Source: Escherichia phage ime09. From it: a stretch of DNA of 64,000 bases. A program made the position numbers and the translations under genes. The DNA lies in sequence record NC_019503.1; one strand, given 5' to 3'. Below, in pieces: positions 2,460 to 63,220 of the stretch; positions within the stretch are counted from its first letter, which is position 1; every line of letters begins with the position of its first letter. A model generated the notes under the pieces. The model saw only the letters and a list, made by a program, of their open reading frames with translations. It was not told where the DNA came from and searched no databases.

Positions 2460-4279
2460 TACTGGCTCATCCATTCTTTACGAAGGTCAGCATTATCTCC
2501 CATGAGCATTTCAAAAAGCTCTTTCCAGTTCTCAGGAAGTTTAACAACATCATATACTGGGTTTTGAATCATCTCACGATATTCAGATTTTTCCAAAGAG
2601 CCAAGTCCCTTAATATAACGGATGCTATGTTTAGGTAGAGCATCTTTGGCACTCTCATATTCAGCGACTGTATAAAACCATTCTTGTTTTTTACCGACCT
2701 GAGCGATGATTACAGGAGTTTTGACAAAGCGAATTCTTCCTTGTTCAAACAGTTCTGGCCAATTACTAAAAAATCCGAGCAGAGAAGGATAAATGCTTCC
2801 TAGACCATCATGGTCAGCGTCAGTCATAATGGCAATATTATGATAATTTAAGTTTTCAGCCTTTTCACCAAGAACTAATCCAGTGATTGCGCAAATATCA
2901 AACAGTTCTTTATTTTTAAGCATATCAGCATATGACATACCCCAACTGTTGAGAACTTTACCACGTAATGGATAACCACCATGAAGTTCTTTATCACGAA
3001 CATCAATAAGATATCCGATAGCAGAATCGCCCTCAGTCAAGAAAAGAGTAGTATCAACATCTTTACCACAAAGATTCGCTTTAATGTGTTTATGAACCTT
3101 AGCTTTAGAAGCCTTTTTAGCTGCTTTAGTTTCTGCTGCTTTTTCTGCCGCCAATTTACGAGCCAAGGCAGCTTCAATAATTGGCATTAAAATTGCTTCA
3201 TTGTTTAAAATAGCACGTGAAATCTTTTTAGCATCAAGCTGAATATGACTACGAATTTCACCAAATGGAGAAGTCAAACGCTCTTTAGTCTGAGAATCAA
3301 ATCGCATGTTTTTCATATCACGAACGAACATAACGATAGTCAAACATTCTTTAACGCGTGCTTTAGTTACATCAATTTTGAACTTACGTTTGATTTGTGG
3401 AATAAGGTCTTCACAAATATCATCCATAACACAGTCAATGTGATGGCCACCATTCTTAGTATGAATGTTATTAACGTATGTTAATTGACGAAAACCATCA
3501 GGTGAACGACCGACTGCAATAGAACAGTTTTCTTGTTCTTGAACGATAGCATGCTCATCATATTGGCGTGCATATTTCTTAAAATTACCCTGAACCTTTT
3601 TACCATTAAAGGTAAATTGAATATCAGGATAAACTACTGCAAGTGTCTGGAGACGATCTAGTGTAATGTCAAGATAAACTTGAGATAGCTCATTAGTTTC
3701 AAATGACATAAAATCAGGAATGAAAGTAACACGTGTTCCTTTCCATTTTCCAGGAATATCTTCCCATGATTTATTTTCCATGCCATTTGAACAACGAACT
3801 ACAATATTATTTTGACCGTCGCCAGTTTCACCGACAAACATCACAGAAAAAATGTTAGTTAAACTAGAACCAACACCGTTCATACCGCCAGTGACGCGTT
3901 CTTTATCATCACCGAAGTTACCACCTGCTTTTGGAATAGTCCAAGCAGCAACAGGACCAGGAATTTCTTCACCAGTAGGTGTTTTAACCATCGCTTGCGG
4001 AATACCACGACCGTTATCTTCAACTGTTACTTGATTGTTTTTAATAGTAACATTAATTTTATTTGCGAATTTAAACTTAGTACGAATACCTTCATCTACT
4101 GAGTTATCGATAATTTCATCAATAAGCTTAACAAGACCAGGTACATACTGAACACTCTCCCATTTACCAAACAGAAAGCGCTCATGCATTTCATTAGCAG
4201 AAGAACCAATGTACATGCCGCTACGCTTTTTGATATGTTCAATATCGCTCAGAATTTTAATTTCATTCTTAATCATCAC
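2459..4279 (-). CDS. 39: DNA topoisomerase II large subunit gp39, unsplit (covers T4 39+60)
   Basis: 606 aa; GyrB-like GHKL ATPase and TOPRIM-type motifs; single continuous ORF. Confidence 0.9.
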   Translation of the reverse strand: MMIKNEIKILSDIEHIKKRSGMYIGSSANEMHERFLFGKWESVQYVPGLVKLIDEIIDNSVDEGIRTKFKFANKINVTIKNNQVTVEDNGRGIPQAMVKTPTGEEIPGPVAAWTIPKAGGNFGDDKERVTGGMNGVGSSLTNIFSVMFVGETGDGQNNIVVRCSNGMENKSWEDIPGKWKGTRVTFIPDFMSFETNELSQVYLDITLDRLQTLAVVYPDIQFTFNGKKVQGNFKKYARQYDEHAIVQEQENCSIAVGRSPDGFRQLTYVNNIHTKNGGHHIDCVMDDICEDLIPQIKRKFKIDVTKARVKECLTIVMFVRDMKNMRFDSQTKERLTSPFGEIRSHIQLDAKKISRAILNNEAILMPIIEAALARKLAAEKAAETKAAKKASKAKVHKHIKANLCGKDVDTTLFLTEGDSAIGYLIDVRDKELHGGYPLRGKVLNSWGMSYADMLKNKELFDICAITGLVLGEKAENLNYHNIAIMTDADHDGLGSIYPSLLGFFSNWPELFEQGRIRFVKTPVIIAQVGKKQEWFYTVAEYESAKDALPKHSIRYIKGLGSLEKSEYREMIQNPVYDVVKLPENWKELFEMLMGDNADLRKEWMSQ

Positions 4280-4988: not shown

Positions 4989-5160
4989 CCTTTAAGTAAG
5001 TCGTAAAATCCACCATTCACATGCTTAGGAGCAGAAGGCAGACGAGTAGACAAACGATGACATTTAGGACAAACATCATTTTCTCGTTCAGAAATCTTTT
5101 TAATTTTTTCATATTCATGCCCGCAATCTTCGGATTGGCATTTATAATCATACATTGGCA
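4984..5160 (-). CDS. small zinc-ribbon protein, FmdB-like (58 aa)
   Basis: manually translated, below track cutoff: MPMYDYKCQSEDCGHEYEK...CPKCH; two CxxC pairs; ATGA overlap with next gene. Confidence 0.5.
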
Positions 5161-5163
5161 TAA

Positions 5164-5583
5164 TTATTCCTTAAAGTGTGCTTTCAACATCTGATACAAA
5201 GACCATGCCTGTTCATTATTTTCAATAGTAACTTTCATGACAGGAAATTCTGTGAAATCTTCTATTTGTTCTTGCTCTTCCTGCTCTTGTTCTTCAGCAG
5301 CCTGATATGGATTTTCCACTTCATCAAAAAACCCAGCTTCGTTAGTAGAAAGCCAGATAAAGTTTTCGTCAAGGATATCACCATGTGTTGCATATCCAAC
5401 TGTGCCAGTAGATGTCACAATTTTAGTAGGACGCCCGTAATAGTCCACATCTAAAATTTTAAAAGGTTCCATACCTAAACGTCGTGCATAGATTCCGTTA
5501 TCAGTATGGTCTTTAATAAAATTTTCTTGAGCTTGTTTATTTTTAAATTGATACCATTTATTAACTTCAAATCTAATAGCCAT
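5164..5583 (-). CDS. hypothetical protein with acidic [10 protein letters not shown] stretch (139 aa)
   Basis: ORF in packed array; low-complexity acidic repeat. Confidence 0.5.
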
Positions 5584-5798
5584 TAATAAATTTCCTTCCA
5601 GTAAGTTGTGCCATCTTCAGTAATTTCACGAAATACACCGTAAATTGGTTGTTTATCACCAACCTTTTCATACACATAAACCGAAGTCAAGTGAGTAAAC
5701 TTAACAGTATGTTCCTTTTGAACTACTACCAAATCTGGATTGAATAATACATCTTCAAATTCGTCATTAGTGCAGTTCTGAACAATTTTACGTTTCAT
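5583..5798 (-). CDS. hypothetical protein (71 aa)
   Basis: co-directional ORF. Confidence 0.45.
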
Positions 5799-16863: not shown

Positions 16864-17064
16864 ATGGTACAAAAATTAATGGCACTTGTTAATGCCATAA
16901 AAGGTAATAAAAAACGTATAGCTTTTACTATTTCTGCTATGGTAGGAATTTTACTCTGGAATTTTGTTTTATCGCCAATTGCTATTGCTCATGGCGTTAA
17001 TATTCCAGTAATTACTCTTGATACATTCGTAGATTTAGCATTTGCTTTAGTTGGGTTAATTTAA
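16864..17064 (+). CDS. candidate small membrane protein, only plus-strand gene candidate
   Basis: 66 aa, two hydrophobic segments; strong AAGGAGG 4-5 nt before ATG; sits in the 56-61 gap. Confidence 0.35.
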   Translation: MVQKLMALVNAIKGNKKRIAFTISAMVGILLWNFVLSPIAIAHGVNIPVITLDTFVDLAFALVGLI

Positions 17065-18089
17065 ATCTTAGCATATTTAGATAGCCGCATTTTAGCCATC
17101 AACCCTTGGGCAATATTATTTTTCATATATTCCATAATTTGTTCAGGGGTTGCACCTTCCTTTCTAATCATATCATTAACATCTTTTGATTTCCAGGGGG
17201 ATTTATCCCAAAACATAACCCTTTCTCCTGCATCAACCAATTTAGTCATTCGTTTAATAGTGTCAGGATGACGAGGTTCATTATCTAAAACCCATACACG
17301 TCTATCTTTAAATGGAACAATTTCTAGGTCTAATTGACCACCTGTAATAGCTATACCATTTTCAATAAAAAGTGAATCTATAGGTCCTTCTAGAACATAT
17401 ACATCACCATCTTTAACTCGTTCAACGCCATAGATTTTTGTTGCTTCAGGATAAGCTTTGATGGTGATATATTTTTGAGGAGCATCTTTCTTTAATGCAC
17501 GTCCTTGAAAAGACTCAGCTTTTCCATTAGCATTATAAATTGGAATAACAAGACGAGGCTCAGGTATTTCCTTTTTGTATGTTCCTGGTGCTATGCTATT
17601 AACTAATTTAGGCCATTCGGTTGTAAACCAAAGATATTTCCATTTATCCTTTGGAATACAACGAGCTTTTACATATTTTATAATTGGATGGTCTTCCGTC
17701 AGTTTATCTAATCTAACGCATGACGGAAGAGATTTAATTATTTTCTTCTCATGTTGTTTAGGAAGTTCTTTAGGTTTTTCTACTGGACGACTTTTACCTT
17801 TTTCTTTTCTTATTTCAAAGATATACTCACGATATAAATCGGGTTCAAACTCCTTTAAATATATTCCGATTGGTGCATGATAGTTACAGTTATAACAATG
17901 AATATTTCCTTCATTATTATCACCATAATACCATCCACGGGCTTTATTTTGGTCGGTTTTTGAATCTCCACAAACAGGGCATCTAAACCGTAATTTAAAA
18001 GTTGAACTATTATTTACTTGTGCGAATTTAGGTAAATGAGCTAATGCACGATATGCAAACTCATTATCAATCCAAGGTATTGATGACAT
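17061..18089 (-). CDS. 61: DNA primase gp61
   Basis: 342 aa; zinc ribbon CPVCGDS...CYNC; matches T4 gp61. Confidence 0.93.
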   Translation of the reverse strand: MSSIPWIDNEFAYRALAHLPKFAQVNNSSTFKLRFRCPVCGDSKTDQNKARGWYYGDNNEGNIHCYNCNYHAPIGIYLKEFEPDLYREYIFEIRKEKGKSRPVEKPKELPKQHEKKIIKSLPSCVRLDKLTEDHPIIKYVKARCIPKDKWKYLWFTTEWPKLVNSIAPGTYKKEIPEPRLVIPIYNANGKAESFQGRALKKDAPQKYITIKAYPEATKIYGVERVKDGDVYVLEGPIDSLFIENGIAITGGQLDLEIVPFKDRRVWVLDNEPRHPDTIKRMTKLVDAGERVMFWDKSPWKSKDVNDMIRKEGATPEQIMEYMKNNIAQGLMAKMRLSKYAKI

Positions 18090-18091
18090 TT

Positions 18092-18256
18092 TTACTCTTC
18101 TTTTTCTTTAGATTCCTCTTTTTTCTTTTTAGGAATCTGTTCAGGACCTTTATTTACTACAGCGCCTGATGTTGTTCCAGTGGAGATATTTTCAGGATTA
18201 CCACCCGAATCTCCAGCTACCATATCTTCTTTGATAAATTCTTTATATGTTTTCAT
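18092..18256 (-). CDS. small protein with capsid-targeting-like N-terminus MKTYKEFIKE (54 aa)
   Basis: manually translated ORF directly upstream of primase; Lys/Glu-rich tail. Confidence 0.4.
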   Translation of the reverse strand: MKTYKEFIKEDMVAGDSGGNPENISTGTTSGAVVNKGPEQIPKKKKEESKEKEE

Positions 18257-18257
18257 A

Positions 18258-18614
18258 TTAACCTCTATTCATAAAAGCATTAAAAATTTGGTCATCAATC
18301 GATGGAATAGCAACTTTTTCTGCATCATTTAGCAAATCATTAATTTCATCAGATAGCATAACACATGTACCTTTATTTCCTGTAATTGTTACTGCGCAAT
18401 TACGAACGTTTTCTTTATCAAATTTTAGGTTAATATTTTCGTAGTGAAAATCCTTTAATGCCGAATATATTTTTAAAATGAAATTATCTTTTACTACAAT
18501 AAACCCAACCTCGCTATTAAAACGTGGTTCATGGAAGCTGTAATAAATCTTTTCATCTATGAAATCGTATGAAATTTTTTCCATTTTTAAATATGAAAAT
18601 TCAGAACTATACAT
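18258..18614 (-). CDS. hypothetical protein (118 aa)
   Basis: co-directional ORF in 61-41 interval. Confidence 0.5.
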   Translation of the reverse strand: MYSSEFSYLKMEKISYDFIDEKIYYSFHEPRFNSEVGFIVVKDNFILKIYSALKDFHYENINLKFDKENVRNCAVTITGNKGTCVMLSDEINDLLNDAEKVAIPSIDDQIFNAFMNRG

Positions 18615-18626
18615 ACTAACCTCTAA

Positions 18627-18920
18627 TTATTCACCTACCACTTCAGCGATGATATTTTTATTATTGAAGTTTTTATCGCAATACAGAACGTAATTATACT
18701 GCATTACACCACCAGACTTAAGTTGTTTTTGCACTTCAGCTTTCATTTCAGGACGATCACGCTCAACGATATTCATAATATCCGCTTCAATTTGAATTTC
18801 AACTTCAGTCTGATCTGCAGTCATAGACCATTCACACAAATCTTTGTCATAACCCGCCATAGCAGGCTGAGCAGCGCAAGAAGATAAAGCAAAAATTGCA
18901 GCAAAGATAAATTTTTTCAT
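18627..18920 (-). CDS. sp: Spackle-like periplasmic protein
   Basis: 97 aa with cleavable signal peptide; size and position match T4 sp (61.3). Confidence 0.65.
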   Translation of the reverse strand: MKKFIFAAIFALSSCAAQPAMAGYDKDLCEWSMTADQTEVEIQIEADIMNIVERDRPEMKAEVQKQLKSGGVMQYNYVLYCDKNFNNKNIIAEVVGE

Positions 18921-18946
18921 GATAATCTCCTCAGTAGTTTATGTTT

Positions 18947-18976
18947 ATAGTATCTCAATTTTCAACAAAAGTAAAC
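18947..18976 (-). promoter_or_regulatory. early promoter GTTTAC-N18-TACTAT
   Basis: upstream of sp-like gene. Confidence 0.5.
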
Positions 18977-19023
18977 ACTAGTAGAAGCAAACAGACAAAT
19001 TGCAATAATTGGTGATTTCAGTT

Positions 19024-61459: not shown

Positions 61460-61933
61460 TTATTTGAATGATTTGACGTACTGAACAGAACCTTTGCTAT
61501 TCACGAAAGCGATTTTACCATTTTTGTTATACATGGTAGCAGTACGCTGATAGCCATAAGTTTGCTTACCAGATTGATAACCAACTAATGCGAAATTATC
61601 TTCGCCCATTTTATTCTGCTTAGCGCGAATGCGTTCATGGCCGTGTGCCATAAGAACCTTAGCATCACCAGTTGAAATTGATCTACGAGTTTTTTCATCT
61701 TCAACTGTATTAACAAAGTCGTCAAATGAATCAAATTTAGCATGGGATTTATTATACAGTTTTCCATCTACTGCATAATTATATCCCTGTACATCCATCT
61801 CAACTTCTGTACCATCATCCAATACAGCAGTGATTTTTTGACCTTTTTTAAATTTCAAAAGATCAGTAAAAGATTCAGCAATAATTTGAGAATTAATAGC
61901 TGCTTCAGTGATAAATTCTTGATATGTTTTCAT
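61460..61933 (-). CDS. internal protein (head-packaged) with capsid targeting sequence
   Basis: 157 aa starting MKTYQEFITEA, the T4 IP/Alt CTS consensus. Confidence 0.65.
   Translation of the reverse strand: MKTYQEFITEAAINSQIIAESFTDLLKFKKGQKITAVLDDGTEVEMDVQGYNYAVDGKLYNKSHAKFDSFDDFVNTVEDEKTRRSISTGDAKVLMAHGHERIRAKQNKMGEDNFALVGYQSGKQTYGYQRTATMYNKNGKIAFVNSKGSVQYVKSFK

Positions 61934-62417: not shown

Positions 62418-63220
<803 letters not shown>

Follow-up and report, generated by a model that had tools for sequence, protein, structure and literature searches.

Gene 61.1 of T4-like phages encodes a small paralog of the gp23 maturation junction and N-fist, a candidate propeptide of the prohead

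Introduction

The assembly of the T4 head is among the best-studied assembly pathways, and the finished head keeps small internal peptides, such as II and VII, which are acidic or mixed-charge fragments of the gp22 scaffold made by gp21 cleavage. A recent review still uses the word "mysterious" for the way in which proteins are directed to the scaffolding core (PMC9958956). Here we describe gene 61.1 of Escherichia phage ime09 (sequence record NC_019503.1), a 54-codon open reading frame (ORF) next to the primase gene, and we compare its product, gp61.1, with known proteins of the T4 head. The window, i.e. the whole stretch of DNA that we analysed, is a 64-kb segment of a Tequatrovirus genome; positions 17000-19000 share 98% identity with phages SH-1 and PP01 and have matches in more than 500 records.

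The closest described systems concern capsid maturation and the targeting of proteins to the prohead. The protease gp21 removes the 65-residue propeptide of gp23 at L63-T64-E65/A66, where the slash marks the cleaved bond (PMC9546572, PMC7136217). Residues 66-91 of the mature protein, gp23*, form the N-fist (PMC7136217), which is disordered and internal in the unexpanded head, and external after expansion, when it contacts four subunits and helps to form the Soc binding site (PMC7136217, PMC9546572, PMC9958956). It is again disordered where it faces the portal (PMC7136217, PMC9958956). Before expansion, gp23 residues 66-105 are located in the head interior, where they are believed to be in contact with the core (PMC9546572). 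The internal proteins IPI, IPII and IPIII, like certain other T4 head proteins, bear a ten-residue capsid targeting sequence (CTS). According to the summary in PMC9026906 of the mutagenesis by Mullaney and Black, targeting depends mainly on CTS residues 4 and 7, and processing on residues 8 and 10. Contacts with DNA phosphates in T4 heads are made by internal-protein lysines alone (PMC3012670). Finally, head proteins of the giant phages SPN3US and phiKZ have propeptides of more than 100 residues, removed at x-x-Glu sites, which are said to play the role of a CTS (PMC5694885).

Gene 61.1 is annotated and functionally uncharacterised. Several phage records give its tiny ORF the label "major capsid protein", which prompted our direct comparison with gp23, and automated pipelines had already picked up a similarity to the capsid protein. 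In the literature that we searched, no paper discusses the function of gp61.1, its CTS or its similarity to gp23. What is new relative to this literature is the combination of a CTS with a gp21 site in register and an N-fist paralog, the ancestry of the protein in a longer form, the recurrence of the CTS-like motif across the family, and the co-variation with gp23.

Results

Homology searches identify gp61.1 as a paralog of the gp23 maturation junction plus the N-fist. BLASTP against gp23 of PP01 aligned residues 2-38 of gp61.1 with gp23 residues 57-93, without gaps and with 16 identities in 37 positions (E 1e-8), and a sequence search of the whole PDB gave T4 gp23 as the best match in the same register (E 0.0085). 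The Smith-Waterman score of the pair is 80, against 27.9 +/- 4.3 for shuffled sequences (z = 12). Profile-profile comparisons by hhalign with the gp23 N-termini of five genera gave a probability of 97.0% for the short forms of gp61.1 (E 1e-10) and 97.7% for the long forms described below (E 2e-12). When a hidden Markov model (HMM) of the family was run on six-frame translations, 61.1 came first, gp23 next (E 1.7e-7), and two internal-protein genes followed weakly. The alignment places I8-K9-E10/D11 of gp61.1 exactly on the gp23 cleavage site, and beyond it both proteins, in all six genera compared below, share the motif [AG]GDxG....IAxGx[TS][ST]G[AS][IV]T..GP. At the DNA level, 44 of the 84 aligned positions are identical, and the third codon positions are at random level (8 of 28), which implies that the duplication is old.

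The likeness to gp23 is confined to this segment. With respect to the gp23/gp24 HK97-fold family, gp61.1 has the maturation site and the N-fist segment, but it lacks the HK97-fold body (the P, A and I domains and the E-loop); we found no capsid-domain match in Pfam or NCBIfam, and the aligned stretch covers just 37 of its 54 residues. The invariant His72 and Tyr74 of gp23 are replaced in gp61.1 by Ser, Ala or Cys and by Gly, so that in pairs from six genera the paralogs differ consistently as GDHGY in gp23 and GD[SAC]GG in gp61.1. Moreover, the P2' residue of gp61.1 is always Met, and gp61.1 ends in a Lys-rich tail at the point where gp23 runs on into the N-arm. For these reasons the label "major capsid domain-containing protein" is misleading.

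The N-terminus of gp61.1, MKTYKEFIKE, had been likened in a preliminary description of this DNA to the CTS of T4 internal proteins, with the reservation that the likeness might be coincidental. We scanned the six-frame translation of the window with the pattern M[KR][TS][YF]x[ED][FVIL][ILMV]x[ED] and found three occurrences, where shuffled sequences lead one to expect 0.005. Besides gp61.1, the pattern marks the starts of the window's two internal-head-protein genes, at 61933 and 62699 on the minus strand. The first ten residues of gp61.1 are identical at eight positions to the larger of these proteins (157 residues) and at seven to the smaller one (93 residues). They include Y4, F7, I8 and E10, which are all four of the critical CTS positions given in the published summary and are identical in the window's internal proteins. 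The gp21-type site that had been noticed within EFIKE is also borne out by the alignments, which put I8-K9-E10 in the gp23 cleavage register. Positions 1-11/12 of the family HMM pick exactly the same two internal-protein genes, although these matches are not significant alone (E 0.22 and 0.77). In an AlphaFold2 (AF2) model of the short peptide, residues 4-11 form a helix with a predicted local distance difference test (pLDDT) score of about 73, residues 43-53 form a tail helix of low confidence, and the intervening module is disordered.

The first 30 nucleotides (nt) of gene 61.1 are identical at 27 positions to those of the 157-residue internal-protein gene, and all eight of the identical residues use identical codons. 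We rejected this as strong evidence for a recent exchange of DNA between 61.1 and the internal-protein genes, because codon bias alone yields p ~0.03 and the upstream DNA is unrelated. The two internal-protein genes themselves flank denV, just downstream of the lysozyme gene e, with two late-promoter consensus sites at 63198-63218.

Gene 61.1 is real and widely conserved. The reading frame, whose conservation among relatives the preliminary description had left to be checked, is indeed maintained: tblastn found the peptide in 1,492 phage records, from phages of Escherichia, Klebsiella, Shigella, Aeromonas, Acinetobacter, Enterobacter and Vibrio. Conservation is highest at residues 10-42, and invariant positions hold from genus to genus. 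When 1.84 billion proteins were searched exhaustively with a profile, 51 representatives emerged, of which about half have 120-165 residues and carry the module at the C-terminus, behind a domain of about 100 residues (PHROG 2086). RB43, Aeh1, KVP40, Acinetobacter phages and others carry this long form as their "gp61.1" (609 records). The peptide of the window matches phrog_1823 over its full length (residues 1-54, E 7e-34 in the PHROG profile search), and its residues 8-53 match positions 109-154 of the long-form profile phrog_2086 (E 2.6e-16). Neither the peptide nor its homologs match Pfam or NCBIfam. Krischvirus (MIGFKQFVEENKLKE/DMTAGD...) and Biquartavirus (MKSFMEVSGRKKGKIDE/DMVAGD...) likewise have short forms. 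As judged from these profiles, the short gp61.1 is a shortened form of a family of proteins of about 150 residues. Neither this ancestry nor the paralogy with the gp23 junction and N-fist had been seen in the preliminary description.

Comparison of the two forms reveals what is constant in the family. The residue directly ahead of the module (P1) is Glu in 83 of 84 family sequences, and 79 of the 84 have a hydrophobic P3; elsewhere the upstream sequence varies freely, and variants with two-residue insertions (KLNE, KLTE) restore L-x-E. In the long forms, the predicted site reads MNE/E in RB43, LIE/M in Aeh1 and VEE/S in KVP40. A run of Lys or Arg lies behind the module in almost all short and long forms. 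The pattern of conservation thus defines a constant unit, made of hydrophobic-x-Glu, the N-fist-like module and the basic run, to which a CTS-like motif or a folded domain is joined at one end or the other. In the AlphaFold model of the long form, the N-terminal domain is confidently helical (pLDDT 80-93) and the module disordered. The conserved part of this small helical domain, at residues ~10-70, reads W.AYKLGIID..G..K.P.T..EK..YT.FH..VR. A Foldseek search of the long-form model against the PDB gave no neighbour (best E 2.8), and its neighbours in BFVD are uncharacterised homologs only, some of them proteins of 387-913 residues that contain the N-terminal domain. We considered this domain as an equivalent of the gp23 propeptide and rejected the idea, since hhalign aligns only the module. 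In a six-frame hmmsearch of the late region of PP01 (37 kb) and of the window, only 61.1 and gp23 matched, and we found no detached N-terminal domain and no second module.

The CTS-like motif recurs with the module, and we therefore set aside the view that the N-terminus is coincidental. Motifs such as KTYKEW, KTFDEF, KSFLEF and FKQFVE directly follow the basic run in 8 of 39 longer-tailed proteins, against 0.1 expected from shuffles. Across genera, the motif thus travels with the module, either ahead of it or right behind the Lys-rich tail. In uncultured T4-like contigs, a single ORF of 247 residues (5001-5744) lies between genes 41 and 61 and consists of the N-terminal domain, the module, the Lys tail, the CTS-like MNEVSNFKQFVEGLE and a domain of about 90 residues; its make-up suggests that 61.1 has fused with a CTS-bearing gene downstream. 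The whole genome of the Krischvirus phage kaaroe has no recognisable set of internal proteins, and its only CTS-like starts are those of gp61.1 (MIGFKQFVEE) and of a UvsW.1-like ORF. The latter encodes 78 residues (2605-2841, minus strand) and starts MISFKRFLVEAAIDG.

We also compared the segments preceding the gp23 cleavage site in PP01, kaaroe, RB43 and AhFM11. In PP01 (AFGSFLTE/A) and kaaroe (FGGFIAE/A), they read aromatic-x-x-aromatic-hydrophobic-x-Glu, like the internal-protein CTS TYQEFIAE/A. It may be that the CTS of internal proteins arose as a copy of the last residues of the gp23 propeptide.

The module of gp61.1 co-varies with gp23. We paired gp61.1 and gp23 of the same phage in six genera (T4-like, RB49-like, RB43, 44RR-like, Aeh1 and KVP40). 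In this small sample, own-phage pairs have 94 identities, against 85.0 +/- 3.7 for cross-phage pairs, and 9 of 720 permutations reach as high a value. Examples are the pairs DATKIASGETSGSIT and DATKIATGEKSGSVT of Aeh1, and VVNGDHGYDPANIAQGVTTGAVT and VVAGDSGGDVAAIASGETTGAVT of KVP40. Own-phage pairs have no excess of identity at third codon positions, which are at random level in all six genera, and we therefore rejected gene conversion between 61.1 and gene 23 as the explanation. The co-variation points to shared constraint, as supportive evidence given the size of the sample. The phyletic distributions are also in line with a link between the two genes. In cyanophage Syn33 (Kyanoviridae), gp23 has a shorter, unrelated segment (TLQTTGYTGASTATGPVAGFDPVLIS) in place of the N-fist motif of Straboviridae. 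More than 440 of the records that the gp23 N-terminus retrieves come from cyanophages, which are not among the top organisms listed for 61.1 matches in the short- and long-form searches. Hence, the N-fist motif and 61.1 appear to have the same distribution.

Behind the module, K44 is invariant and K45 nearly so across the family. The predicted mature peptide, D11-E54, has 44 residues, a mass of 4,602 Da (against 5.9 kDa for the uncut peptide) and a pI of 5.0, with 7 Lys against 9 Asp and Glu. Many orthologs have net basic tails, as does a frameshift variant of T6 type with 62 residues, which is more basic and overlaps the first codons of gene 61. A simulated deletion of one A from the A6 run in the Lys-coding part of the gene reproduces this variant exactly. 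Its existence indicates that the acidic end of the tail is dispensable and that the A6 run is a natural frameshift hotspot.

The locus itself is as the preliminary description had it in most respects. The peptide of 54 residues that it placed immediately upstream of the primase is encoded by an ORF of 165 nt, including the TAA stop, at 18092-18256 of the minus strand, a strand which had not been given; its translation is MKTYKEFIKEDMVAGDSGGNPENISTGTTSGAVVNKGPEQIPKKKKEESKEKEE. The comparison then made with T4 gene 61.1 was also justified, since the same ORF is annotated in PP01 as gene 61.1, "hypothetical protein", and is the ortholog of the T4 gene. The ORF starts 1 nt past the stop of gene 61.2 (TAA, 18258-18260), and its own stop (18092-18094) lies 2 nt from the ATG of gene 61 (18087-18089), close to the 3 nt that had been reported. 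The gene order on the minus strand is uvsX, 40, 41, dmd, 61.4, goF, an ORF, sp, 61.2, 61.1, 61, 56 and then soc. Two plus-strand ORFs that overlap 61.1 (18044-18169 and 18180-18332) were discarded as antisense translations rich in F and L and without support. A 61.1 homolog lies upstream of the primase in the window, PP01, RB43, Aeh1, KVP40, kaaroe, AhFM11 and uncultured contigs, and in KVP40 it is near the primase although the helicase gene 41 is elsewhere. In Aeh1, KVP40, RB43, kaaroe and AhFM11, genes 61.1 and 61 are 41-150 nt apart or have an ORF between them. The features are collected in Table 1.

Table 1. Coordinates of gene 61.1, its parts and the genes used for comparison (positions in the window)
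Feature	Position	Strand	Basis or remark
Gene 61.1, ORF of 54 codons plus TAA	18092..18256	-	Translation; 61.1 in PP01; PHROG 1823, E 7e-34
Shine-Dalgarno sequence GAGG	18262..18265	-	5 nt upstream of the 61.1 ATG, within the last codons of gene 61.2; read from the sequence
Residues 1-10, MKTYKEFIKE, CTS-like N-terminus, predicted short amphipathic helix	18227..18256	-	Comparison with internal proteins; AF2
I8-K9-E10, predicted gp21 cleavage site, cut after E10 (between 18227 and 18226)	18227..18235	-	Register with gp23
Residues 11-38, DMVAGDSGGNPENISTGTTSGAVVNKGP, paralog of gp23 66-93	18143..18226	-	BLASTP, PDB search, hhalign, Smith-Waterman, hmmsearch
Residues 39-54, EQIPKKKKEESKEKEE, tail with conserved Lys run K43-K46 and variable acidic end	18095..18142	-	Family alignment
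A6 run in the Lys-coding part	18119..18124	-	Deleting one A gives the T6-type variant tail PKKKKRNLKKKKSKNVINTLD (simulated)
Gene 61, primase, conserved downstream neighbour	17061..18089	-	Context
Internal virion protein gene, 157 residues, starts MKTYQEFITE	61460..61933	-	Comparator; phrog_3155, E 2e-101
Internal head protein gene, 93 residues	62418..62699	-	Comparator; phrog_3499, E 1e-46

Published T4 data give the expression and the fitness effect of the gene. The 61.1 mRNA is classed as early, and its protein is unassigned to a class (PMC9697503, supplement 4). In the window, two strong early-type promoters lie upstream of 61.1, at about 20.05 and 19.57 kb. In the same T4 study, ipI, ipII, ipIII and the head gene 40 are classed as "early RNA, late protein" (PMC9697503). 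Early transcription of 61.1 alone thus need not argue against a role in the head. These data also bear on the earlier remark that a CTS is unexpected in the replication cluster: the argument has less force than it seems, because head gene 40 belongs to the same cluster and, like the three internal-protein genes, shares the early-RNA class of 61.1 in T4. Knockdown of T4 61.1 by CRISPRi-ART had no measurable fitness cost on a laboratory host (-0.84, p 0.93, "Not Fit"; PMC11879866, supplement 15).

Discussion

We tentatively favour, at slightly less than an even chance, a reading in which gp61.1 is a propeptide that would be targeted to the prohead and cut there by gp21 to release an N-fist-like peptide of 44 residues. 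Three independent features of its sequence point to the prohead: an amphipathic N-terminus of CTS type (residues 1-10) with all critical residues, a conserved gp21-type site (I-K-E/D, in the register of L-T-E/A in gp23), and a 28-residue copy of the N-fist, a segment of gp23 that in the prohead adjoins the core, followed by a Lys-rich tail. The peptide would be made from early transcripts and persist until head assembly. It would then co-assemble into the scaffolding core by means of its CTS, perhaps with help from the gp23-like segment, because the matching segment of gp23 sits inside the unexpanded prohead, beside the core. Cleavage after Glu10 would leave a peptide of 4.6 kDa, mostly disordered, which would remain in the head as a minor and dispensable component. 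By analogy with the internal proteins, its Lys run could contact DNA, or else the acidic core; alternatively, the peptide may compete with the N-terminus of gp23 or complement it. In other genera, the N-terminal domain of about 100 residues would replace the ten-residue CTS ahead of the same predicted cleavage site. In agreement with a propeptide of the prohead, the AF2 model leaves the module disordered, like the N-terminus of gp23 before expansion, and the knockdown without effect on fitness fits an accessory head component.

Several observations weigh against such a propeptide. The literature that we searched contains no detection of gp61.1 in virions or proheads, and the protein is not listed in the T4 virion mass spectrometry supplements of Ali 2017. 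It is also absent (as P39228) from the table of whole-cell protein intensities in T4, in which gp61.2, Sp and gp61.4 are quantified (PMC9697503). No late-promoter consensus (TATAAATA) occurs on the coding strand between 15.9 and 56.4 kb. The predicted site has Asp at P1', whereas the cited sites have a small residue there (LTE/A in gp23, ITE/A and LSE/S in the internal proteins of the window). The mature peptide would be mildly acidic in this phage, and basic mature internal proteins are thus a poor match. A peptide of 4.6 kDa could also leak out of the prohead, as scaffold fragments do. In every 61.1, small residues (GDSGG) stand in place of the gp23-invariant His72 and Tyr74, and hence the peptide may differ from a true N-fist in fold or docking; the residues common to both paralogs may instead reflect a role of the gp23 N-terminus before expansion, such as contact with the core or the protease. 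Finally, the deeply conserved linkage to the primase is left unexplained by a role in the head. Uncut gp61.1 would yield the tryptic peptide EDMVAGDSGGNPENISTGTTSGAVVNK, and the form predicted after the gp21 cut, which starts DMVAGD..., the semi-tryptic or native DMVAGDSGGNPENISTGTTSGAVVNK.

The comparison with described systems is instructive in both directions. Like the T4 internal proteins and other CTS-bearing head proteins, gp61.1 matches the CTS over ten residues, including the four critical positions, with a hydrophobic-x-Glu site of gp21 type at its end; it is non-essential, belongs to the same early-RNA class and has a Lys run that could contact DNA. Unlike them, it lies beside the primase instead of in the internal-protein loci, away from any nearby late promoter, its packaging is only predicted, and its "cargo" would be a mildly acidic copy of a capsid segment, 44 residues long, where theirs is a folded anti-defence protein. 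The gp23 segment 57-93 is similar in its ungapped homology, with the cleavage Glu in register, in its disorder when undocked (predicted by AF2 for 61.1), and in co-varying with 61.1 within lineages. The long form recalls the propeptides of giant phages, with its N-terminal domain of about 100 residues ahead of the same hydrophobic-x-Glu site. Yet this domain is confidently modelled as folded, in a fold without neighbour in the PDB, and could be a functional part, with processing as a prediction only. As for the internal peptides II and VII, they share with the predicted mature gp61.1 a small size, an acidic or mixed charge and an origin in gp21 cleavage, but they are fragments of an essential scaffold, whereas 61.1 would be a dedicated gene for such a peptide.

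The resemblance to gp23 could also serve a protein that is never packaged. In this case, an early cytoplasmic protein would imitate the gp23 junction and occupy the gp21 protease, a chaperone or a host capsid sensor, thereby tuning maturation or blunting a defence triggered by the capsid. The early mRNA and the lack of a late promoter fit such a mimic or decoy, as do the strong homology and co-variation with gp23, the neighbouring counter-defence or exclusion genes (dmd, spackle and the AdfA-like 61.2), and the dispensability on a laboratory host, which is expected of a host-specific accessory gene. However, a decoy explains neither the association of a CTS-like motif with the module in several architectures nor the strict retention of the hydrophobic-x-Glu site, and no defence-related family matches gp61.1 in PHROGs, Pfam or NCBIfam. 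Furthermore, the gp23-derived trigger of a capsid-sensing defence, the Gol peptide sensed by Lit, presumably spans roughly residues 93-122, just downstream of the copied segment, and is absent from 61.1, which we count against a decoy. We regard this explanation as rather unlikely.

The propeptide reading can be widened to the whole family. A free-standing copy of the junction and N-fist might enter the prohead in all these phages, be cut at the same site and act in trans on the shell or core, as a co-evolving component or timer of capsid maturation, with the CTS of internal proteins derived from the end of the gp23 propeptide. We consider this broader proposal distinctly improbable as a whole.

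A function tied to the primase would account for what the prohead does not, namely that in all genera examined a 61.1 homolog lies near and upstream of the primase, including KVP40, whose helicase gene 41 is not adjacent. The peptide would then be a Lys-rich accessory that binds DNA or the primosome, or an upstream ORF translationally coupled to gene 61, and its resemblance to gp23 a relic without a role in the head. The 2 nt between the genes in the window suit coupling, early expression suits replication, and some of the BFVD neighbours of 387-913 residues that contain the long-form domain could be fusions. But the tight spacing is not conserved (the 41-150 nt gaps or intervening ORF of five phages), and the T6-type frameshift alters the junction with gene 61 in phages that retain the gene. 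Neither the conservation of the amino acids of a Gly-rich module of 28 residues nor its lineage-specific co-variation with gp23 is expected from a mere coupling ORF. We thus find a link of this kind very unlikely to be the explanation.

The least probable alternative, a free N-fist that would dock in trans on the shell at positions lacking an adjacent N-fist (beside gp24 pentamers or the portal) or compete with docking to time expansion, draws on the four-subunit contacts of the N-fist and its disorder facing the portal (PMC7136217, PMC9958956), on the lack of an N-fist in gp24, on the co-variation with gp23 and on the unassigned density reported under gp24 in the expanded head (PMC9546572), but it meets the absence of His72 and Tyr74 from 61.1, the lack of N-fist-like unassigned density in what the papers cited here report of the T4 capsid maps at 3.3-3.4 Angstrom, and a topological problem, as the true N-fist ends on the outer surface and a peptide delivered by a CTS starts inside.

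One conserved peptide, gp61.1, joins a CTS, a gp21 site in the gp23 register and the N-fist, which suggests that targeting, recognition of the cleavage site and the capsid N-terminus share one interaction. Being tiny, dispensable and easily engineered, gp61.1 is a convenient probe for this idea. Should the peptide turn out not to be packaged, then either a full CTS consensus is insufficient for packaging or the mimic works in the cytoplasm. The finding would also correct the misleading "major capsid protein" label that 61.1 bears in some phage records.

A last observation concerns the upstream neighbour. Gene 61.2 of the window (18258-18614, minus strand) encodes 118 residues, whose match to the Pfam anti-DarT factor AdfA is limited to the C-terminal half (positions 114-211 of a profile of 211). 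The T4 gene 61.2 has 627 nt, and the 61.2 proteins of the window phage and of PP01 are thus N-terminally truncated AdfA homologs.

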